A stretch of 61,590 nt of DNA, counting the filler, from Malassezia furfur (lineage: Eukaryota), in the NCBI GenBank assembly GCA_052055015.1. It is 8 parts of 8 records of this genome, joined end to end, with 100 filler letters (N's around TTAATTAATTAA, not from the genome) between each part and the next. Parts side by side here need not be neighbours in the genome. Positions count along the whole stretch, not along the records: positions 1 to 7,730 come from JBQJIT010000487.1; 7 more parts are not named here. One strand, written 5' to 3'. Positions 1 through 11,710 of the stretch are shown piece after piece (positions within the stretch are counted from its first letter, which is position 1; each line of letters begins with the position of its first letter). The notes below the pieces were generated by a model. It was given only the letters and a program-made list of their open reading frames with translations, searched no databases and was not told where the DNA came from. The position numbers and the translations under genes were made by a program.

Positions 1-240
1 CCAAACTAAGGGAAATTCGTACTCCTTTACACTAATGCATCGCGTCCTATCTGGGACCAGAACATGTTATGTAATATGTTAGTCAGCAAGGCCGGATGAT
101 GGCCTGTGCGTAGCGTCTCCACTTCGGCACCTCGGGATATCGCTCGATCACCATAGTAAATCCGGTCATGGCACACGTGTAAGCCAGCACTTATTTATAA
201 GCCTATTGAGTAGTTCCTGTGGTAAACCTTTGCAACCACT

Positions 241-1263
241 ATGGAATACGTCAACCTTGGTAACTCGGGGCTTAAAATTTCCCGAGTCATTATGGGATGC
301 ATGACCTTCGGTTCCGACCAATGGATCCCGTGGGTCATGAATGAAGATGATGCTCTTCCTCTTTTCGAGCATGCATACAAAGCAGGGATCAATACTTGGG
401 ATACTGCAGACGTTTACAGCAACGGAAGATCTGAAGAGATTGTGGGGAAAGCGCTGAAAAAGTACAACATTCCTCGTGAAAGGGTGGTAATTATGACCAA
501 ACTGTACTTCCCGGTAAACGAAGACGGTCCTGAACCCTTGATTGGCGCGAAAAACGATGGTCCACTGGTAAATCGAGCGGGTCTATCGCGCAAACACATT
601 CTTGATGCGGTCGCCGCAAGTGTCAAACGTTTGGGAACTTATATTGACGTGCTCCAAATCCATCGTTTGGACCGGCAAACACCCAAAGAGGAAATCATGC
701 GCGCGCTCAATGATGTGATTGAGCAAGGTTCTGTCAGATACATCGGAGCAAGTTCTATGGCTGCTTGGGAATTTCAACAACTCCAGAATGTTGCTGAGAA
801 GAATGGATGGTTTAAATTCATCTCCATGCAGAACCTTTACAACTTGATTTATCGTGAAGAAGAGAGGGAAATGATTCCTTATTGTCAAGCAACAGGCGTC
901 GGCATAATTCCGTGGTATGCCCTGGCGGCAGGCATGCTCGCTCGTCCGTGGAGCGATGAATCTTCTAAACGTGCACAAACAGATGAATTTATGAAGTACA
1001 TTTTGCGCAACGATTCGACCCAGTCTGATCAAGAAGTTGTTGCACGAATTGAAGAATTGTCGAAGAAGAAAGGTGTGCCTATGGCCCAAATTTCCATTGC
1101 GTGGTTATTGAGCCATAAAGGAGTCAATCCTATCCTTGGGCTGAACAAACCAGAACGTATAAATGAGGCTGTTGAAGCACTTAAAGTCCAGCTATCTGAA
1201 GAAGAGATCAAGTATCTTGAAGAACCTTACAAGTCAAAGCCGGTTCGAGGAATCAGCGGCTAG
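241..1263 (+). CDS. Aldo-keto reductase (aryl-alcohol dehydrogenase-like), intronless
   Basis: 340-aa ORF with the LGNSGLKIS...GCMTFG N-terminus, DTADVYSNGRSEEIVG, MTK, DVLQIHR and RYIGASSM. The AKR catalytic D/Y/K/H residues are present. Confidence 0.93.
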   Translation: MEYVNLGNSGLKISRVIMGCMTFGSDQWIPWVMNEDDALPLFEHAYKAGINTWDTADVYSNGRSEEIVGKALKKYNIPRERVVIMTKLYFPVNEDGPEPLIGAKNDGPLVNRAGLSRKHILDAVAASVKRLGTYIDVLQIHRLDRQTPKEEIMRALNDVIEQGSVRYIGASSMAAWEFQQLQNVAEKNGWFKFISMQNLYNLIYREEEREMIPYCQATGVGIIPWYALAAGMLARPWSDESSKRAQTDEFMKYILRNDSTQSDQEVVARIEELSKKKGVPMAQISIAWLLSHKGVNPILGLNKPERINEAVEALKVQLSEEEIKYLEEPYKSKPVRGISG

Positions 1264-1992
1264 AATGGTGAATAAACTTGATTTGGCAGTAGCCCCTGAC
1301 GAAGCAAGTAGTGAACAAACCATTGAAATTATCTGTTTAGTTTACATATTGAGCAGTCTATTTAGACAATTCTGGAGACAATGCACATTTGTTACTCATT
1401 GTGGGCTTCATGAGATCTGAAGTCAACTTCCCGCGAAAGTCCCATTCAACTGTTCAGTAAACACAGAACAAGGTCCAAATTATTTCGTAATTACACCATC
1501 TATTTATTCGGTAGGACGGTATTGGTGTGTGGCTTTCAGTCTGTCAGACCCTAACCGACATCTTTCAACAATTACAATAGCTGACCTTGTGACCAAAGCG
1601 AGCGAAAGCCGGTCAGTAACAACTTGGATCTGCATGGGGTTGTTTCGAAAAAAAAAAAATAATAGGCTCCCGATCGACCAATCTGTTGTGGGGATTCTGA
1701 AGGGATGAACGACGCGTGACCCCCGGCGGAAAGGTCATTACGGTTACTCACAACCCCACAAAAAGTAGCTTTATTTTATCCAACCATTGGCGTCTCCCAC
1801 GCAGCCGAAGATCAAAATAGAGCGATCATGGACTGTGAGGGGTGATTCAGCTGCAGCATGGTCACTAAACGTGGATACCTCCTTGCTCAGCATGACCGGT
1901 TGTTTTGGTTAAGGGGCTGTTTACACGGGGAAAATGAGTAACATAAATTTGTGAAACCGTCCGAACCTTGCACATCCAACCGCCCCTTCGCT

Positions 1993-3387
1993 ATGCGTTC
2001 ACCGCTCCTTCTTTTCGTCTTTGCGTTCTTTCATTGTGTCTTAGCGCTCTCTCATCCCCCTCAGCGCCGGGCTAGCATCAATACGCCTCCCAATGATGCT
2101 TTCTACACTCCTCCTGATGGATGGGAGAGCAAGGAGCCTGGTACCGTACTTCGTACGCGTAAGGTGAACCTTGCCTTTTTGCAAATTGACGACTACAACT
2201 ATGAGGCGGCCTACCAGATCCTCTATCGTACCACGGGTGGTTACGAAGACGAGCCTGCGACCACGGTGACTACGGTCATCATTCCTTACAACGCCAAGAA
2301 GAACAAGCTGGTCAACTACCTTGTGTATACGGATTCGAATGGTGCCCAGTGCGCGCCCTCGTATTCGATGCGCAAGGGCGGAAACTTCGGCACGGACCTT
2401 GCCTTGAGTTACCAGCAAATTCTCTTCACGACCTTCCTTAACGAGGGTTGGATCCTCACTGTGCCGGATTACCAAGGTCCTACGCGCGGGTTTGGTGCTG
2501 GTCGTCTGGAGGGCCGTATGGCACTTGATGCCATTCGTGCCACTCTGAACTACGAGCCGGTTGGCCTGAGCAAGAACACCAAGGTTGTTTCGTATGGCTA
2601 CTCGGGTGGTGCCATTGCGTCCGGCTGGGCTGCGGGACTCCAGCCTAACTATGCTCCGGAGATCAATGCAGTTGGCTTTGCAATGGGCGGAACCCCTGCC
2701 AACATTTCGGGCACGGTTCAAAACCTTAATGCCGGTCTCTTCTCTGGCTTCGCCATCACGGGTATTACTGGCGTTTACTTTACGTACCCGGCCATTCAAG
2801 AATGGGCGCGCGGGAAGCTTACTACCAAGGGTCGCCAGGCTCTTGAGTATGCTCGCACCCATTGCATGCTTGACGTGCTGCTCAGGTACCCCTTCACCAA
2901 TGCTCTCACTGATGACTTGATTCGCGGTGGCTCTCAATTGCTCGAGGCGCCTGCGGTGGCCAACGTGATCGACAAGCTCAACATGGGTCAACAGGAGAGT
3001 GAGACGCCTACTGCTCCGGTTTATATGTTCCATGGACAGCATGACGAGGTTATTCCCTTCAGGGATGCGCTGAAGACGGCTCATGCCTGGGCCAACCATG
3101 GAGCGGACGTTCGCCTGGATGACTTCACCGACGTGACGTCCGAGCACCTCGTCTCTGAGCTGCTCAACGTTCCCAACGTCCTCTTCTTTGTGCGTGACCG
3201 TTTCGCCGGCAAGTCCTTCCCCAAAGGTTTCCACCGCAGGACGACGAGCAACCCGATCGACGAGCCGAACGACTCGCTCCAGGGTCTTGGGTCTCTCGTT
3301 CAGTCCATCGAGGACCTTATTGGCCGCAAGGTCGGTCCGGGCGACTCGATTATCAAGAACCGCATTCGCGAGAATGCCCGTTCTTAA
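1993..3387 (+). CDS. Secreted lipase, Candida LIP-type (secretory lipase family)
   Basis: ATG at 1993 gives a hydrophobic signal peptide (MRSPLLLFVFAFFHCVLA). Motifs include AYQILYRT, CAPSY, VPDYQGP, the GYSGG nucleophile elbow and HGQHDEVIP. Confidence 0.93.
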   Translation: MRSPLLLFVFAFFHCVLALSHPPQRRASINTPPNDAFYTPPDGWESKEPGTVLRTRKVNLAFLQIDDYNYEAAYQILYRTTGGYEDEPATTVTTVIIPYNAKKNKLVNYLVYTDSNGAQCAPSYSMRKGGNFGTDLALSYQQILFTTFLNEGWILTVPDYQGPTRGFGAGRLEGRMALDAIRATLNYEPVGLSKNTKVVSYGYSGGAIASGWAAGLQPNYAPEINAVGFAMGGTPANISGTVQNLNAGLFSGFAITGITGVYFTYPAIQEWARGKLTTKGRQALEYARTHCMLDVLLRYPFTNALTDDLIRGGSQLLEAPAVANVIDKLNMGQQESETPTAPVYMFHGQHDEVIPFRDALKTAHAWANHGADVRLDDFTDVTSEHLVSELLNVPNVLFFVRDRFAGKSFPKGFHRRTTSNPIDEPNDSLQGLGSLVQSIEDLIGRKVGPGDSIIKNRIRENARS

Positions 3388-3798
3388 GCAAGACCCCTCC
3401 CTAACTGTTTCCGACTCTCGTTTGTGGGTTTTTGTGGGTTTCTGCGTCGTTTCCGAGCGCGTTTTATAGGTTTGATACAGTATAAAACTATCGATACAAT
3501 CCGTCCTAGTACAGCCAGCAACGGTTGAAACTAGACGATGATGGATGAAATGCCAGGTAGAAATATCCATACATGTAAAGGATGAGCCCCTTGCCCACCC
3601 TCACCTTTCCACCTTTTTTGTCGTTCCTGCACGTGGTAGTACACAATAGTCAATGCCCTGTGCGCTTGTACCCGATTCTGGGCTGCACGGTACGGTGAAA
3701 ATGATCTTTGCCCCAGAGACCTCTTGCTCTCACAAATTGTCACGAATATTCCTGACGTGTGCACGCTAACGACAGTGGTCCGGTTACCGTCTGATCCT

Positions 3799-4254
3799 TT
3801 ACAATAGGTCCACCTCCCAGTTCAGCTTTTGAATCTTGGTATCAAGCTCGCGATAGTCTCTTGCGAGTTCATCCACCTTCTTTTGCATGTTCTTGACATT
3901 CACCGTCGTGACATACTTGATCTCGTTTCGCGAGTACCGCTCCTGTGAAGAGCTAGCTCTCGCGGCCAAATCCGAGTACAACTTTCGCCGCTTGAGTAGC
4001 ATGTCTCGGAAAGCAATCGCATCCGTGAGTGTGTATTGGTCATTAAACATGGTTTGAGTGTTGGTCTTGTTGATTCGCCGAATGAGGAGGTCGAGCTGAT
4101 CGAGAATGGCATTGGCCTCCGCAATCAGCTCGTCCGGGTCCTCGGAAGGCTCGTCACCCTCCTGTATCCGTACATTCTGCAAGATGCGCTCCTTGACTTG
4201 GTCATATCTCCGTTGGGCCTCGGCCCTCTCTGCCAATGCCTCGGCCAACAACAT
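3799..4254 (-). CDS. DIP1984-family ('septicolysin'-annotated) coiled-coil protein, bacterial-like
   Basis: 151 aa from the ATG at 4254: MLLAEALAERA...VRIQEGDEPSEDP...IRRINKTN...TLTDAIAFRD...RYSRNEIKYV...RELDTKIQKLNWEVDLL. This matches the family pattern from end to end. No introns. Confidence 0.85.
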   Translation of the reverse strand: MLLAEALAERAEAQRRYDQVKERILQNVRIQEGDEPSEDPDELIAEANAILDQLDLLIRRINKTNTQTMFNDQYTLTDAIAFRDMLLKRRKLYSDLAARASSSQERYSRNEIKYVTTVNVKNMQKKVDELARDYRELDTKIQKLNWEVDLL

Positions 4255-4861
4255 CGTTGGTGAGAAGAAATGAAAGACGGGTGGTGGAGGGAGCGGGGGA
4301 CCGTGAATGCTGTGCTTATATACCTTTCTTCTCATGGTATGCTACGTTCATGACGCCACCGTGCCACAACTAGGGCAACGACGCCACCTTCTGATTCATG
4401 AGGCGCTCTTGTTAATGGCCACACGCAACCTAAAAGTTCGCATCATGCAGAATGAAACAATGGTACGGGCTCGGCGCAATGCGATTTGTCCATCGTCCGT
4501 ATCACGTGGAAGTACCTTGCGGAGGGGTCAATTTTAGCTACAGTGGCGGTACCTTGGCAGCTAGGGGCACCGATGGGGGGATGATTGGGTCTGCGCTCAT
4601 GAGCCCGGTGGCAGCCTGGGCAAGTTCCAGGAGCCTCCGCTGAGCGGCTCTGTCAAGCTATGCGCCTGAAAATAAAGCCTGCACGTGCGCCTCTCCCTGG
4701 AGCGCGGCGAAGTATCGGAGTGTGGAGAAACGTCGCTTCTTGTGCGCACGTGTCAGGTTGACCCTGGCTCGCTGTGGGGGAGCAGTGTGCGATCGTAGCA
4801 AGCGGCGTGCCTACAAATGTGAGACAAGATGCCGTAGACACGGCGTTCCCTTCTGGGTTGA

Positions 4862-5809
4862 ATGATGTACATTCGGGCGCTGATGCTCCTCTTTGTTTCG
4901 AGCGTCTTGGCGCTGTCGAACAATGAGGCCCTGAAGATTGTCAAGCATGGTGCGCAAATGAAGAATGCAGGCCCCTCGTCGGAGCAGCAACCCCGCTCGA
5001 TCCCGATCGACTGGCACCTGCTGAGCCAGGCAGCAGGCATGGCGCAGCAGGACTACTGCCTGTTCCAGCGCCCCGGGCAGGACGTAGGCGATGCACAGCT
5101 GTTGTACGAGTTTGGTGACGGCAACTTTGTGCAGCGCGCCTTGATCTTCAAGTCGAAGAGCCTGGGCATCACGGTGGCCTTTGAAGGAACCGAGCCCATC
5201 AGTCCCTTTTCGCAGATCCACGACGCTGATTTCCGGCTGGTAGACCCGTCCAAGGCGCTTGGCGGTGCGTACCCTGAAGGGGTGCAGCTGTTTGATGGAT
5301 TCGAGACGGCGTACCTTGCTGTCGCGAAGCCGATCCTCGCCAAAGTGCGGGAGTACTGTGCGACGTACAAGGAGACGCGTGTGTCGGTCACCGGCCACTC
5401 GCTCGGTGCCGCGATGGCGCTCATTGCCGCCGGCCACTACAACAACGTCCTGGACCAGGGCCTCCACCAGGCGCTCGTGTTTGGGCTGCCGCGCACGGGC
5501 AACGCGCAGTTTGCCAACTTTATTGACGCGACGCTCAAGGGCAAGTTTTACTACGTGGTGAACGGCCATGACCTGGTGCCGCATGTGCCTCCGCGCGGCT
5601 TTGGGTACCAGCACCCCTCGGGCCAGATTTGGATCAACCCCGCGAGCTCGACCGAGTGGAAGTTTTACCCCGGGCAAGAGAATGTGCACGGGGCGAACTC
5701 GGTGGGTCTTGCGCTCAATACCGAGGACCACCACGGCACGTACTTCCACACGGGCCTGGGCCATGGACTCGGTGCCGGCTCGTGCCCTGCCAAGGTGGAC
5801 ACGCAGTAA
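4862..5809 (+). CDS. Secreted class 3 lipase (mono/diacylglycerol lipase, Malassezia SMG1-like)
   Basis: Signal peptide, AFEGT oxyanion region, TGHSLG (Ser), FGLPRTGN, HDLVPHVPP (Asp), GYQHPSGQIWI and DHHG (His). Confidence 0.92.
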   Translation: MMYIRALMLLFVSSVLALSNNEALKIVKHGAQMKNAGPSSEQQPRSIPIDWHLLSQAAGMAQQDYCLFQRPGQDVGDAQLLYEFGDGNFVQRALIFKSKSLGITVAFEGTEPISPFSQIHDADFRLVDPSKALGGAYPEGVQLFDGFETAYLAVAKPILAKVREYCATYKETRVSVTGHSLGAAMALIAAGHYNNVLDQGLHQALVFGLPRTGNAQFANFIDATLKGKFYYVVNGHDLVPHVPPRGFGYQHPSGQIWINPASSTEWKFYPGQENVHGANSVGLALNTEDHHGTYFHTGLGHGLGAGSCPAKVDTQ

Positions 5810-5889
5810 GCCGCCCCGAGAGGCTGCGTCGCTGGCAGGCACTCTGCAGCTGTGGGACGTTGATAGCCTTGCTAGCTTGTATGAGTCTC

Positions 5890-7716
5890 CTACAGGAACG
5901 CCTCGAGGTTGAACTCCAGTGCGGAGCACGGGAAGAGGATGTCAAAGTGCTGGAGCACCTCGGGGTGGAGCACGCCGAGGGTGCCGACCTGGGCGTCGCC
6001 GCCCTGCTCGAGCGCCTTGCGGAGCTCGGGGAGGGTGTCGAGCGGGCTCGATCCGTCGGCGTTCTCGAACGTGCGGCGCAAGAAGATGGCCGCGGCGCGG
6101 CCCGAGAAGAAGGTGGCATCGTCGGTCTCCTTGAGGTAGTAGCCGACCTTGGCGGTGGTATCGTTGCGGTCGATGCGCGGGATGGACAGGGTGAGCATGA
6201 GCTTGTCGAGCAGCCCGTGCACCACCTCGAAGCCGGCCGTCTTGTTGCAGTAGACGGCGCCGACGTGGCGCTCGTTGCGCGCCATGCGCTGCTTCTCGGT
6301 GGGGTCCTTGAACGCGACGTCGGACACCTCGAAGACCTGCATGGGCAGCGCGTGCTTCTTATTCTCCCGCAGCGTCTTGAGAAGCCCCGGGATGAGCGAG
6401 GTGCGCACCACCTGGAACTCGGCGGTCTTGGGGTTGCCGAGCACGATCGCCTTGGTCTTGTCGTCCTTGCGGTTCATGAAGCGGAAGTTTTCGTCGTGCG
6501 AGCAGAGGATCAGCGGCAGCGTCTCGATCCAGCCGGCGTACGCACACTCCTGGCGGATGATGTCGCCGAGCGTGTTGATGGCGAGCGGCGCGCCGACCGT
6601 GTTGGTCGACGGGAAGGTCTTGGGCAGGTTGTCGAAGCCGTGCGCCACCGCGACGTCCTCCATCAGGTCGCACTCGTGCAGGATGTCGGGCCGCGTCACG
6701 GGCACATCGACCACCACCTCGTCGTCGCCGCCCGGCGTCGCGCCGTGGCCCATGCGCGCGAGGAGCCGTGCGATCTCCTGCGCGTTGTGCTCCAGGCCGG
6801 TGCACCGGTTCACGTACGAGGGGTGCGCGAGGGTGCGGCGTGCGTCCAGCTGCGGCGTGATTTCCTCGTGTCCGTCGGGGTATACGACACGGATCGGCTC
6901 GACCTTAAACGGCTCGGCGCAGTACTCGGAGAACATGGCGACGAGGATGTTGAGCACGATGTCGAGCTTCGTCTTGTCGACCGCCGTCACGTCGATAAAC
7001 ACGTTGCGCGTCTCGAGCGTGATCTTGGAGTGGTTCGAGTTGATGATCGGCGGCATGGACAGCACGCGGCGCTGCTGGTCGAAGATGATCGGGTACACGG
7101 GGCTGTCGCGGATGATGTGCAGGTAGCGGCTGAGGTGCAGGTCGGACTCGTACAGCTCCATCAGCTCCTTGCCGCTGTACTCCTCGGTGCGGTTCAGCGG
7201 CGCAAAGCGGAAGGCGTCCGGCGGCAGCGCCTCGTAGGTGAACGGCGCCTGGATCGTGTCGAGGTCATGCGTGCCGATGGCCACGAGCGTGCGGCGGCGC
7301 GCGAGGTTCTGGTGCAGCTTGTCCTGCAGGTCAATGAAGCTCGCGTAGCGCTCCGGGGTGAAGCGCACGTTGCGCAGCACCGCACCGGCAAAGTACGGCC
7401 GGATCTGCGCGGTCTCGGGCGCGACGGTGAGGGTCAGCAGCTCCTTGGGCTGCGTCAGGCGGTACGTGGGCGGCTCGTCCTTCCCGAGGAAGATGCGCAG
7501 CGCGCGCAAAATGCCCTCAAAGCACAGCAGGTCGTACCGGTTGGCCGGGATATCGATTTTGAGCTGCGGGCGCTCGTCGGTGCCCTTGACCTCCTCGGTG
7601 GTGTCGTCATCGAGCTCGATGCCGAACTGGAAGCACAGCTCATCGAACTCCTCGGTGGTGTACTGGCGCCCGAGTCCCTCGAGCAGCAGCGCCTTGTCCA
7701 CGCTGACGGTCGGCAT
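5890..7716 (-). CDS. FRS1: Phenylalanyl-tRNA synthetase beta subunit, cytoplasmic
   Basis: MPTVSVDK...FDELCFQFGIELD, KIDIPANRYDLLCFEG, DLQDKLHQN, LSMPPIINS, NPKTAEFQVVRTSL, GVLHPEVL. Confidence 0.97.
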   Translation of the reverse strand: MPTVSVDKALLLEGLGRQYTTEEFDELCFQFGIELDDDTTEEVKGTDERPQLKIDIPANRYDLLCFEGILRALRIFLGKDEPPTYRLTQPKELLTLTVAPETAQIRPYFAGAVLRNVRFTPERYASFIDLQDKLHQNLARRRTLVAIGTHDLDTIQAPFTYEALPPDAFRFAPLNRTEEYSGKELMELYESDLHLSRYLHIIRDSPVYPIIFDQQRRVLSMPPIINSNHSKITLETRNVFIDVTAVDKTKLDIVLNILVAMFSEYCAEPFKVEPIRVVYPDGHEEITPQLDARRTLAHPSYVNRCTGLEHNAQEIARLLARMGHGATPGGDDEVVVDVPVTRPDILHECDLMEDVAVAHGFDNLPKTFPSTNTVGAPLAINTLGDIIRQECAYAGWIETLPLILCSHDENFRFMNRKDDKTKAIVLGNPKTAEFQVVRTSLIPGLLKTLRENKKHALPMQVFEVSDVAFKDPTEKQRMARNERHVGAVYCNKTAGFEVVHGLLDKLMLTLSIPRIDRNDTTAKVGYYLKETDDATFFSGRAAAIFLRRTFENADGSSPLDTLPELRKALEQGGDAQVGTLGVLHPEVLQHFDILFPCSALEFNLEAFL

Positions 7717-7730
7717 GGTGCAGCAGAGCA

Positions 7731-7830
7731 NNNNNNNNNNNNNNNNNNNNNNNNNNNNNNNNNNNNNNNNNNNNTTAATTAATTAANNNNNNNNNNNNNN
7801 NNNNNNNNNNNNNNNNNNNNNNNNNNNNNN
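7731..7830. other. Artificial contig-joining spacer (N-run/TTAATTAATTAA/N-run)
   Basis: 100 bp, with a six-frame stop linker at 7775-7786. Confidence 0.98.
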
Positions 7831-8404: not shown

Positions 8405-11400
8405 CTACGCGGCCTCTTCCTCGTTGCGGGGTGCGGCGTCGGTGTCGGCGTCGGCCATGGCCGCCAGCGCGCCAATGACGTCCTCGACGTCGCCGACGTG
8501 CCAGTCGGCGAGCGTGCGCTTCGACGCGGCCCCGACGGTCATCGTGAACATCTGGTCGCGGTGCAGTCGGATCTTGCGCGGGCCCTCGGAGCGCGAGGCC
8601 GTCGCGCGGTTCAGCGGCGTCGGCGGGTCGACGACGATGTTGTCGAGCGTCGGCGCGTCGTCGTCCGCGGCGGCGCCGTGCCCGTCCTCGCTGACGTCCG
8701 ACGACAGGCCCGAAAGGAAGCGGAACATGTCCTCGTCCGTCTTGTCGTCGCCCGCGCAAAAGACAAACTCCGTGTCGGGGTTGCCGTACAGGATGCGGTG
8801 CACAATCTCGCCCTTGTTGATCGCGAGCGGGCGCACCTCGACGTTCTTCTTGCCGACGACCACCTCGACCTCCAGCTCGTTCTGCGAGAGGATGTTGTCC
8901 AGGAGCGACTGGCAGTCTTTCGCCTGGAACGAGCCAAAGTCGGGGTCCGCGTTGCGGTAGTGCCACACGATCGAGCTCTTCTTTTCCTCGATCATGCTGC
9001 CGATCGTGCGGTCGGTGTAGTAGCGGAACACGTTGAGCACGTCCGACTTCCACGACATGTCCAGCTCCGCCGACAGGTTCTGCCACTTTTTGCCCGTGCC
9101 GTGCTCCTTGAAGTAGCTGCCGTGCTCGGCCGACAAACCGATCGCGGGCAGCTGGTCAAAGTGCTTGCGCAGGAACGCCTCGTCGCGCCCCGAGATGATG
9201 TACAGCACGTTGCGGGGGTCCTCGGACAGGATGCGCAGCGCGTCCAGCAAACGCTGCGACGGCACCGCACGCTCGGGGTCCTTGACAATCGGCGTGAGCG
9301 TCCCGTCGTAGTCGAGCAAGAAGAGGCGCTTGCGCGCCGGCACATACTTGCGCAGCATCGCCGCACGGTCAAACACGGGCGTCGCGTGCGCCGAGTACCG
9401 GTGGCGCAGGCGCAGCAGCATCTGCTGCACCAGCGACAGCGCCCACGTGTGCGACGTCTGCGACACCACCGCGTGATAGCACTCGCGGTGGCGCTCGGCG
9501 CGCTCGGCGTCCGACATGCGCAGGCCGTGGTCGATCGCATTGGCCACGCCGCGAATGTCCCACGGGTTGATCTGGATCGCGGCAGGCAGGCGCCCGGCCG
9601 TGCCGGTGAACTCGCTCAAGATGAGCGTGCCGCGCTGGTGGTGGTGCTGGCACACGACGTACTCCATCGACATGGTGTTCATCCCATCGCGCACCGACGT
9701 CACCAGCGCGAGGTCCGCGACCGACAACAGCGCATAGTACTCGTCGCGGTCGATCAGCTGGTGGTAGTGCTGCACGGGCGTAAAGCTCAGCGAGCCAAAG
9801 TCGCCGTTGATCAGGCTCACCAGCTCGCTCACCTCGCGCTCGAGCTTCGCCGAGGAGTTCATCGCAGGGATGGTCACCTGGATCAGCACGACCTTTTCGC
9901 GCCACGCGGGGAAGTGCAGCAGCAGCTCGTAGAACGCCTGCAGCTTTTGGATCACGCCGCGCACCACATCGAGCTTGTCGCAGCCGACCAGCACGTGCTT
10001 GTCCGCGTACAGCTCCTGCAGCTGCGCCATCTTGGGCGCAACGCCGGGCGCGCGGCTGTCGTGCTCGACGCGCGCGACGTGGATCCCGATCGGGCTGTAG
10101 GAGACGTGCGTCACGCGCCCGTTGTACGACTCGACGCTCGCGCCCTGCACCTCGAAGCCGCTGATGCGCACACAGCTCGAGATAAAGTGGCGCGCATACG
10201 AGCGGTTCTGGAACACACACAGGTCCGCGCCGAGCATCCCGTCGATCAGGTCGCGCCGCTGCGGCAGGCACCGGAAGAACTCGCTCGAGGGGAACGACGA
10301 GTGCACAAACAGGCCGATGTGCGCCTCGGGCACGCGCTTGCGCACCAGCTCGGGCACCAGCAGCAGGTGGTAGTCGTGCACCCACACAATGTCCCCGGGC
10401 TGGTACTCGGCCGCGACGCGCTCCGCAAACGCCTCGTTCACCTGCACGTACGCCTCCCAGCTGTACTGGTCCCACCGCGTGCGGTCCGCGTCGTCGCGCC
10501 ACAGCAGGTAGTGGAAGAGCGGCCAGAGCGTCGACTTGCAGTAGCCCTCGTAGTGCGCACGCCGCGTGCGGTAGTCGAGCCACACCGGCACGTACTTGAT
10601 CCCGTGCCGCGGCGGCGCCTCGACCTCCACGGCCGACGGGCCCATGCGCAGCCCGCCCTCGTGCAGCGTCCACGCGGCGCGGTCCTCGAGCGACGCCAAG
10701 ACCCGCTCCATGTCGCGCCGCTCGTCGTCCGTCGCTTGGCTCACGTCGGTGCGCATATCGTTGTGCGCCTGCGCGGCAAACAGCACATTTTCGGGGCACG
10801 CAATGTACGTCTGCGCGTGCGTCGCACACAGCGCGTACACGCCGCTGTTCATCGCCGCACTCACGCTCGTCAGCGACAGGTACCACGGCGGGCGCGTCGG
10901 CACCGTCGGCTCGGGCGGCGTCGCAGGGCTCGCCTGGTCACTGATCCCGCTCTCCTGCGGCATCCACGACGGCATGTCGATGTCCACGCTCGAGCTCGAC
11001 GTATGCGTGTAGCGCGAGTTGCGCCGCGATGCAATCGGCGAGAAACGGTCGTCCTCGGACGCCTCGCTCGTATCGTCCACCACCTCGGTCATCATCCACG
11101 CCCGCCGGCCCGCACGCCGCCGCGACCGCTCCTGGTTCTCCATCAGCTTGGTCTCGAGGTTAATGTTGTCGAGGAATGCGCTGCGCATGCCGGCAAGCGC
11201 ATTCGCTGCCGCGCCCGACGCCCGCCGCGACCGCTGGCCCCAGAAACTGCTCCGCCGCGAGTGGTGCGTCGCGGGGGGGATCGCCGCGGCGTACTGCCGC
11301 TGCAGCGCACGCTGCTCCTCTTGCGCGGCCTGCTCGGCCTCGCGCGCTTCGCGCTCCGCGCGCCGCGCACGCGCCGCCTGTGCGAGCTGCGCAACACGGT

Positions 11401-11710
11401 CAACCGCCGCGGTCTGCGCCGCAAGCCGCTCGTGGTGCTCGACCTCGGCCATCGACTGCAGCACAAACGGCATCTTGTGCGCGACATGGATGATGCGTCC
11501 ACTCAGGGGGTTGTTTGCCCGGTCAATGCGCAGCTCCCGCTCCAGCCGGTTCACGGCGTCTTGCAGCTCGTGCAGCGTCGGGAACGTCTTTCGTGGCTGC
11601 TCGTCACAGCCGGGGATCGGGCCACTGGGCTCTTCCAGCATGGGCGTGCCGGGCACGCCCTCCCGACGCTCGGCAGGGATGCTCGGCTGTGCCGCACGCT
11701 CGCTGCTCAT
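8405..11710 (-). CDS. TPS2: Trehalose-6-phosphate phosphatase (GT20-like domain plus HAD phosphatase)
   Basis: LWPLFHY, VWVHDYHLLLVP, FPSSEFFRCLP, RDGMN, LSEFTG, then HAD motifs FLLDYDGTLTP, AEHG and CAGDDKTDEDMF. Likely ATG at 11710. Confidence 0.95.
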   Translation of the reverse strand: MSSERAAQPSIPAERREGVPGTPMLEEPSGPIPGCDEQPRKTFPTLHELQDAVNRLERELRIDRANNPLSGRIIHVAHKMPFVLQSMAEVEHHERLAAQTAAVDRVAQLAQAARARRAEREAREAEQAAQEEQRALQRQYAAAIPPATHHSRRSSFWGQRSRRASGAAANALAGMRSAFLDNINLETKLMENQERSRRRAGRRAWMMTEVVDDTSEASEDDRFSPIASRRNSRYTHTSSSSVDIDMPSWMPQESGISDQASPATPPEPTVPTRPPWYLSLTSVSAAMNSGVYALCATHAQTYIACPENVLFAAQAHNDMRTDVSQATDDERRDMERVLASLEDRAAWTLHEGGLRMGPSAVEVEAPPRHGIKYVPVWLDYRTRRAHYEGYCKSTLWPLFHYLLWRDDADRTRWDQYSWEAYVQVNEAFAERVAAEYQPGDIVWVHDYHLLLVPELVRKRVPEAHIGLFVHSSFPSSEFFRCLPQRRDLIDGMLGADLCVFQNRSYARHFISSCVRISGFEVQGASVESYNGRVTHVSYSPIGIHVARVEHDSRAPGVAPKMAQLQELYADKHVLVGCDKLDVVRGVIQKLQAFYELLLHFPAWREKVVLIQVTIPAMNSSAKLEREVSELVSLINGDFGSLSFTPVQHYHQLIDRDEYYALLSVADLALVTSVRDGMNTMSMEYVVCQHHHQRGTLILSEFTGTAGRLPAAIQINPWDIRGVANAIDHGLRMSDAERAERHRECYHAVVSQTSHTWALSLVQQMLLRLRHRYSAHATPVFDRAAMLRKYVPARKRLFLLDYDGTLTPIVKDPERAVPSQRLLDALRILSEDPRNVLYIISGRDEAFLRKHFDQLPAIGLSAEHGSYFKEHGTGKKWQNLSAELDMSWKSDVLNVFRYYTDRTIGSMIEEKKSSIVWHYRNADPDFGSFQAKDCQSLLDNILSQNELEVEVVVGKKNVEVRPLAINKGEIVHRILYGNPDTEFVFCAGDDKTDEDMFRFLSGLSSDVSEDGHGAAADDDAPTLDNIVVDPPTPLNRATASRSEGPRKIRLHRDQMFTMTVGAASKRTLADWHVGDVEDVIGALAAMADADTDAAPRNEEEAA

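Follow-up and report, generated by a model that had tools for sequence, protein, structure and literature searches.

What is a small gene of bacterial type doing on a chromosome of the yeast Malassezia furfur, and what might its product do for the fungus? The gene is an unbroken, intronless reading frame of 151 codons on the minus strand at positions 3799–4254 of the window, by which we mean the whole stretch of 61,590 nucleotides that was analysed. A preliminary description had read this frame as a member of the DIP1984 family on the strength of its sequence patterns; its coordinates are exact, and the patterns MxLAEALxxRA, QEGxxPxEDP, IxRINxTN, RYSRxEI and LDxxIQxxNWxxDL are all found.

The gene, its protein family and its fold

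The Met at 4254 is the likely translation start, even though an alternative in-frame ATG at 4335 would yield an ORF of 178 amino acids. We favour 4254 because the corresponding M1 of the family is invariant in 68 of 68 aligned sequences, and because the TATATAAG box at 4322–4315 sits 3′ of the ATG at 4335. This box is followed by a pyrimidine-rich tract and by an A at position −3 of the ATG, an arrangement that on inspection resembles a fungal core promoter (putatively 4255–4322, minus strand). The contig of the gene occupies only positions 1–7730 of the window and ends at an N spacer (7731–7830). Eight contigs are joined in the window, with paired N runs recurring about every 7.7 kb between 7731 and 54072, and because these spacers part contigs, genes beyond 7730 are not neighbours of the DIP1984-family gene. 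A trehalose-phosphate synthase/phosphatase at 8405–11710, for example, lies on another contig.

Profile searches bear out the proposed family membership, with full-length scores above the curated cut-offs for both Pfam DUF6847 (PF20935; E 1.5e-55, 187 bits against a cut-off of 27, positions 1–141 of 141) and NCBIfam NF038048, DIP1984_fam (193 bits against a cut-off of 70, positions 2–149 of 149). The protein also matches PDB 3KDQ_A of Corynebacterium diphtheriae at E 1.4e-44 and 50% identity, and its predicted model superimposes on that structure with a TM of 0.96 and an rmsd of 1.1 Å over 151 residues. Unlike the bacterial members of the DIP1984/DUF6847 family, this copy resides on a fungal chromosome and has a TATA-type upstream region. 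In the literature on the family we found no description of its function.

The AlphaFold2 model (pLDDT 94) comprises four helices, at residues 3–27, 40–67, 76–101 and 120–147, which form two related helix-loop-helix halves. The relationship between the halves emerges from profile comparison alone (hhalign 79%, E 1.6e-5 over 69 columns, against 5.5% for a reversed control), since BLAST of the halves as single sequences was not significant. The only clear fold match is 3KDQ (Z 17.3); the next, itself among generic helical bundles, reaches Z 9.0, and the ESM Atlas returned only unnamed 169-aa clusters at 0.90, for which recognition was low and a named match was lacking. Across a diverse set of 130 sequences, most of the conserved positions are polar (R10, R23, QEG 31–33, N62, N65, R106, E111, R135, Q142, N145 and W146), and no catalytic arrangement is evident from them. 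With a pI of 5.2 and a net charge of −3, the protein is slightly acidic; it has no hydrophobic segment (the highest 19-residue Kyte-Doolittle mean is 0.84), and it appears to possess neither a signal peptide nor a membrane segment. Nine longer homologues offered no convincing fusion: a 516-aa protein has a low-information extension, one 457-aa form carries an HTH protein in front, and 12 longer representatives contain no second Pfam domain above cut-off.

The early suggestion that helical hairpins might assemble into oligomers was offered as speculation, and it is now consistent with both the duplicated four-helix fold and a predicted four-copy assembly. The four-copy prediction scores 0.65 against 0.02 for the best control, with at least 64% of contacts agreeing between runs and a pLDDT of at least 82. 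The mark used for self-association was attained by 21 of 30 microbial proteins whose solved structures are pairs, and by 0 of 23 single chains; among eukaryotic proteins it was reached by 17 of 29, but by just 1 of the 7 that have no older solved relative. The four-copy job is unlike the two-copy calibration, and because 3KDQ was solved with four chains, the high score may be memory. In the predicted interface, helices 1–2 of one copy pack on helix 3 of the other, with loops 27–33 and 112–118 included. The 151-aa protein is thus predicted to self-associate.

A self-associating protein of this shape might serve as a membrane-stress scaffold, in which an elongated helical dimer would polymerise on the inner membrane face like PspA/ESCRT-III or BAR proteins, an activity that could be useful for a yeast fed on fatty acids. 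The all-helical hairpins and the predicted assembly suit such a role, and structural comparison yields PspA (Z 8.1, rmsd 12.8, 111 residues aligned), Snf7 (Z 8.2, rmsd 4.6, 77 aligned) and weak BAR-domain matches (E 0.36 or worse). A co-oriented AAA ATPase also follows the family gene at loci L068, L083, L086 and L102, and another is present at L204. However, these Z-scores fall within the helical-bundle background, where 9301 chains reach a Z of at least 2 and many are tied between 7.7 and 9. No Pfam match to PspA, Snf7 or BAR was obtained, and the net negative charge of the protein and its lack of a hydrophobic segment also count against a scaffold. We consider a membrane scaffold unlikely, though not so unlikely as to be neglected.

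RNA-repair and tRNA-array neighbourhoods of the bacterial relatives

The DUF6847 family is patchy across bacteria. Genomes above its cut-off make up 6 of 151 in Cyanobacteriota, 15 of 201 in Chloroflexota, 5 of 351 in Pseudomonadota, 9 of 301 in Actinomycetota, 16 of 301 in Bacillota and 4 of 201 in Acidobacteriota, where each phylum tally includes the sample's centre genome and those for Chloroflexota and Actinomycetota include one unpublished genome each (G305 and G936). An even sample of Blastocatellia gave 17 of 151. Deinococcus radiodurans, too, has a match to the family. Two Bacillota genomes (L232 and L233) hold two DUF6847 genes in tandem, 2 kb apart.

To describe the neighbourhoods, a locus was scored for RNA-repair or tRNA-array context when it held at least five tRNAs or any of rtcB, rtcA, rtcR, Ro60 or an RNA ligase, with neighbour Pfam scans covering 86 of 109 proteins and 48 of 99 cluster representatives. 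Among 116 loci taken from the top matches, this context, which the preliminary description had not foreseen, is present at 23 of 25 in Acidobacteriota and at 3 of the 37 that are unassigned, but at 0 of the 54 from other named phyla. Pfam scans beside the Acidobacteriota copies identified Ro60, RtcR, RtcB, RtcA, RNA ligase and HNH proteins, and tRNA scans revealed co-oriented arrays of up to 31 tRNAs. The even sample of Blastocatellia, the class of L061, shows the context at 13 of 16 loci (11 with repair genes and 6 with arrays), leaving out the centre genome and including two loci that repeat the first set; these counts are not independent events because the loci share ancestry. Even samples of five other phyla gave 0 of 43 loci, with the nearest-neighbour Pfam scan covering 94 of 145 proteins. 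The RNA-repair link is therefore limited by lineage to Acidobacteriota plus three metagenome loci.

The gene order at some of these loci suggests a shared mode of control. At L061, a sigma-54 site separates a divergent rtcR from the series DIP1984–rtcB–rtcA–tRNAs. Six Blastocatellia copies face rtcR directly, and 4 of these 6 have a sigma-54-type site 51–63 bases upstream; the site is present at 0 of 11 other loci (two more had no start found), and shuffled sequences gave a mean of 0.015. Family-wide enrichment of such sites was not found (2 of 162 against a shuffle mean of 0.47). Because 13 of 16 loci lie in this context and four of the six rtcR-facing copies carry the site, we conclude that DUF6847 in Blastocatellia belongs to an RNA-repair/translation-stress unit, whose genes are probably co-regulated. 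At L103 and L105 rtcB is directly upstream, and these copies fall in the clade that is sister to Corynebacterium plus Malassezia (support 100/96).

Comparable units are on record in Anabaena, where HNH, rtcB and dpsA genes beside long tRNA arrays are co-induced by translational stress (PMC8421152; PMC10272220), and the accessible text of these two papers does not name DUF6847. The Blastocatellia relatives occupy units like RtcR/sigma-54 operons, long tRNA arrays and the Anabaena trn/TrcR regulon, whereas such neighbours are missing around the Malassezia copy, whose contig (1–7730) carries no tRNA gene and whose genome, in an assembly that may be incomplete, gave no RtcB match. Our search found no paper naming DUF6847 in an RNA-repair context; its coverage stopped short of Burroughs and Aravind 2016, reportedly a review on RNA-repair gene neighbourhoods. 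Two possible links to the Anabaena system were rejected. The array-linked gene all4315 (438 bp, 2.4-fold up in a trcR mutant) is not identifiable as a family member, and a TrcR-like repeat with 2 mismatches upstream of the cyanobacterial L204 gene is at chance level (one found against 2.39 expected).

Several features of the arrays deserve mention in their own right. Long tRNA arrays occur in Blastocatellia/Pyrinomonadaceae at L014, L017, L023, L028, L032, L055, L063, L069, L083 and other loci, with up to 31 genes in 10 kb accompanied by HNH, RtcB, Ro60, RtcA and AAA ATPase genes. Three recurring array proteins have no Pfam match (L028:3703–4263, L014:4324–4983 and L080:6600–7448), and a homologue of the first of these (E 6e-49) is encoded near a cyanobacterial DUF6847 gene at L201:8175–8621. 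An intein-containing RtcB lies upstream of a DUF6847 gene at L054:1306–3468. Acidobacteria have been counted among the phyla with mostly stand-alone tRNA genes (PMC8421152).

RtcB is likewise without a match in 4 of 5 Corynebacterium carriers, which together with its absence from the present genome search rules out an obligate partnership. We propose that the Malassezia protein acts as a cytosolic, non-enzymatic, stand-alone stress protectant, a reading that we rank above its rivals but hold to be far from assured. The protein would be made when translation or RNA is damaged, and its two related helical hairpins would self-associate as an antiparallel dimer or a larger assembly. This assembly might bind RNA, ribosomes, or nascent, damaged or stalled protein, either as a scaffold or as a holdase, and its protection would need no RtcB. 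Malassezia would then keep the DIP1984-family gene among its bacterial stress genes and use it against the same stress as in bacteria. The slight acidity of the protein (pI 5.2, net −3) counts against a protectant, since it makes for no obvious RNA binder.

It is also conceivable that the family is cargo for conflict or defence: a mobile accessory gene, travelling on islands and plasmids, that guards against the damage done by phages or toxins and is neutral or repurposed in Malassezia. Its patchy spread (samples range from 5 of 351 genomes to 17 of 151) would be expected of such cargo, as would its presence on 370 plasmids, 341 of them from Acinetobacter, with BrnT/BrnA adjoining it in the one record examined. 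BFVD offers weak fold matches over the full length (TM about 0.5, best E 0.014) to uncharacterised 170–210-aa proteins from large phages and from giant viruses, which are possible distant relatives. However, there was no PADLOC match at E 0.1 and no PHROG below E 0.006, and neighbours outside Acidobacteriota are mostly ordinary metabolic genes. We strongly doubt that defence is the main function, but this proposal and that of a stress protectant overlap because RNA repair answers toxin damage.

The chromosomal setting in Malassezia

On its contig, the DIP1984-family gene converges with a secretory lipase (Pfam LIP; 1993–3387, plus strand) and diverges, across a 607-bp intergenic region, from a class 3 lipase (4862–5809, plus strand). 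Beyond the lipases lie an aldo-keto reductase (241–1263, plus strand) and the phenylalanyl-tRNA synthetase beta subunit FRS1 (5890–7716, minus strand), a core fungal gene that anchors the contig. The genome holds 17 matches to LIP, 7 each to the class 3 lipase and the aldo-keto reductase, and one to FRS1, and both protein and family searches find the DIP1984-family gene in single copy. Along the contig, GC3s rises from 0.43 in the aldo-keto reductase, the lowest value, through 0.64 (LIP), 0.67 (the DIP1984-family gene) and 0.80 to 0.95 in FRS1, so the composition of the gene suits its place in this gradient. At 13.7 Mb in 1856 contigs, the assembly is big for Malassezia, whose genomes typically span 7–9 Mb, yet FRS1, both lipases and the DIP1984-family gene are without a close second copy. 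A hybrid that has locally lost heterozygosity, or contigs of foreign origin, may account for its size.

The position between two secreted lipases, to which the preliminary description drew attention, is genuine on this contig, but none of eight other Malassezia-type loci keeps the adjacency. At these eight loci, some of which are short, the two lipases, the aldo-keto reductase and FRS1 are all without a match, and an aspartyl protease or a catalase is located nearby instead. Four overlapping metagenome loci from a related Malassezia (L093, L094, L096 and L098) terminate in TTAGTG-type repeats about 2.5 kb downstream of the gene, with the aspartyl protease in between; longer loci add fungal genes. 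TTAGTG has been named as a Malassezia telomeric motif (PMC12506658). One M. japonica copy bears the second locus tag of its assembly, and no telomere is seen on contig 1–7730 itself. As a separate observation, the Malassezia-type copy at L101:2728–8413, at the end of a 150-kb contig, has a frame break near codon 126 and a long catalase 3 kb away, catalase being another reported class of horizontally transferred gene.

Given that the lipase adjacency is not kept elsewhere, we prefer subtelomeric co-location to a functional lipase link, and the gene is probably a subtelomeric resident among multi-copy families. If the protein worked together with the flanking lipases, for example in lipid handling, with its expression co-regulated through the 607-bp region that two of the genes share, this would accord with the divergent and convergent arrangement of the three genes. 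However, both lipase families are multi-copy in this genome and the protein appears to carry no secretion signal, and, with the eight other loci lacking these neighbours, such a partnership seems to us improbable.

The septicolysin name and the bacterial origin of the gene

A ‘septicolysin-like’ gene has indeed been listed among Malassezia transfer candidates, as the preliminary description said. Ianiri et al. describe one (bioRxiv 10.1101/2020.01.28.923367) that is absent from the M. sympodialis group and has five copies in M. globosa, as repeated in PMC7426719. Copy-number variation of this gene has also been reported (PMC12239588). Because UniRef gives the name Septicolysin to M. globosa MGL_4058 and to family members from M. 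furfur, M. obtusa, M. japonica and M. arunalokei, the published candidate almost certainly belongs to the DIP1984/DUF6847 family. The gene is a real and already reported horizontal acquisition, and since the transfer has been published, our core finding is not new. As far as their accessible text goes, the earlier Malassezia papers take the product for a toxin that forms pores, and they name neither a donor nor a tree, a fold or a place on the chromosome.

A pore-forming cytolysin or virulence factor is what the name, as used in databases and in the accessible statements of several papers, would imply, and the reported variation in M. globosa copy number could be taken to agree. Cholesterol-dependent cytolysins are secreted, beta-rich, four-domain proteins of about 500 amino acids with a Trp-rich undecapeptide. 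The Malassezia protein shares with true septicolysin and perfringolysin O no more than the name: it has 151 residues, four predicted helices, one Trp, no Cys, no hydrophobic segment, no cytolysin Pfam domain and no match to an undecapeptide-like motif. The initial view that it is far too small to be such a cytolysin can thus be extended, as its fold and sequence also argue against the toxin label, and we regard a cytolysin as highly improbable.

The literature behind the label points in the same direction, within the text available from each source. For Acinetobacter, septicolysin's precise role is given as unknown and expression alone is reported (PMC3358182). The septicolysin primer of that study exactly matches the start of the DIP1984 CDS in NZ_CP030084, which aligns the plasmid ‘sep’ gene of the tonB-sep module with this family, although the Acinetobacter protein has 34% identity to ours and does not represent the donor lineage (AU p 0.0002). 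The deposited spl sequence had no high-identity counterpart in five C. septicum genomes (PMC8696124), and a functional test is not to be found in the accessible parts of PMC10889530, PMC13141974, PMC5390826, PMC7943614, 10.1101/845511 and 10.1101/2023.09.04.556232. A termite study among them reports that a ‘septicolysin-like’ symbiont transcript, a putative member of DUF6847, is up in all 8 treatments. The ‘septicolysin’ label therefore appears to be a propagated annotation.

That the gene is no contaminant had been argued from its fungal flanks, and the argument is now considerably stronger. Its product is identical at 147 of 151 residues (97%) to a named protein of M. furfur that occurs on 43 contigs of up to 617 kb, at 130 of 151 to a second M. 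furfur protein, and at 66–74% to proteins of M. japonica, M. obtusa, M. globosa and M. arunalokei. Eight metagenome loci (L092–L098 and L101) hold copies at 65–66% identity, and around the longer of these lie genes of fungal type, for example those for Ipi1, an aspartyl protease and an SSRP1-type chaperone. Nei-Gojobori dN/dS between Malassezia copies is about 0.05–0.1 where dS is computable (1 of 7 pairs is saturated), indicating purifying selection. The gene thus has a physical place in a fungal genome, on one contig with FRS1 and lipases, with near-identical protein encoded on independent long contigs. Bacterial contamination or a chimeric assembly, which the fragmentation and size of the assembly might bring to mind, is so very unlikely, given this near-twin, the orthologues in four further species and a sequence far nearer to Malassezia proteins than to any bacterial one, that we set it aside.

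Phylogenetic analysis places the gene within bacterial diversity, as the bacterial origin proposed at the outset would require. Named eukaryotes are all Malassezia among the best 120 of 605 matches, and again among the best 120 of 1989 matches to a divergent clade member, most rows in both sets having no name; the next named matches are from Corynebacterium, at 50–57% identity. In an unrooted IQ-TREE tree of 40 rows, a subset of 101, ten rows form a Malassezia clade (98/94) comprising seven that are named or Malassezia-like, one of them assigned by likeness only, and three that are unnamed. This clade is sister to, not inside, a Corynebacterium clade (95/91), the two are united at 99/96, and a small Acidobacteriota-type clade is next to them (100/96). 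The same picture emerges from quick trees of 194 and 101 rows. With groups chosen after the tree was seen, AU tests rejected three placements for Malassezia, namely beside sequences of the Acinetobacter type (p 0.0002), beside Bacillota (0.002) and beside the Acidobacteriota sister clade (0.029), and nesting inside Corynebacterium, with the C. lowii/C. mastitidis group, was not rejected (0.137).

Two MAGs labelled Campylobacter (L038 and L081) have copies and neighbours that cluster with Corynebacterium, and these contigs are perhaps mis-binned. The family gene also has guaA (GMP synthase), an integration hot spot, directly upstream in Corynebacterium oculi (L046:3384–4958) and in a Bacillota genome (L243:2–742).

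It is highly probable that a Corynebacterium-related bacterium passed the gene to the Malassezia lineage once, long ago, and that inheritance was vertical from then on. The gene would subsequently have been duplicated in some Malassezia species and, as reported, lost in the M. sympodialis group, and it would have settled close to the ends of chromosomes, in the company of lipase, protease and oxidoreductase families. More broadly, DUF6847 might be an unrecognised translation-stress or RNA-repair effector that works independently of RtcB, often stands first in RtcR/sigma-54 operons or rides as a passenger on long tRNA arrays, has spread on plasmids and islands, and has distant relatives in large phages. 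Malassezia would have taken it from skin corynebacteria, kept it under selection and amplified it near telomeres as a stand-alone protector of the translation apparatus. We consider this full scenario possible but rather doubtful.

To a transfer that was already in print, the present analysis adds a likely donor, which the tree points to among skin corynebacteria, a subtelomeric setting, a case against the toxin label and a first testable hypothesis for DUF6847 function. The case against the label matters because it is the name alone that leads papers on Malassezia and Acinetobacter to cite a virulence factor that forms pores. For the family as a whole, the operon evidence lends a structurally solved group of proteins a testable role in translation- or RNA-damage stress.
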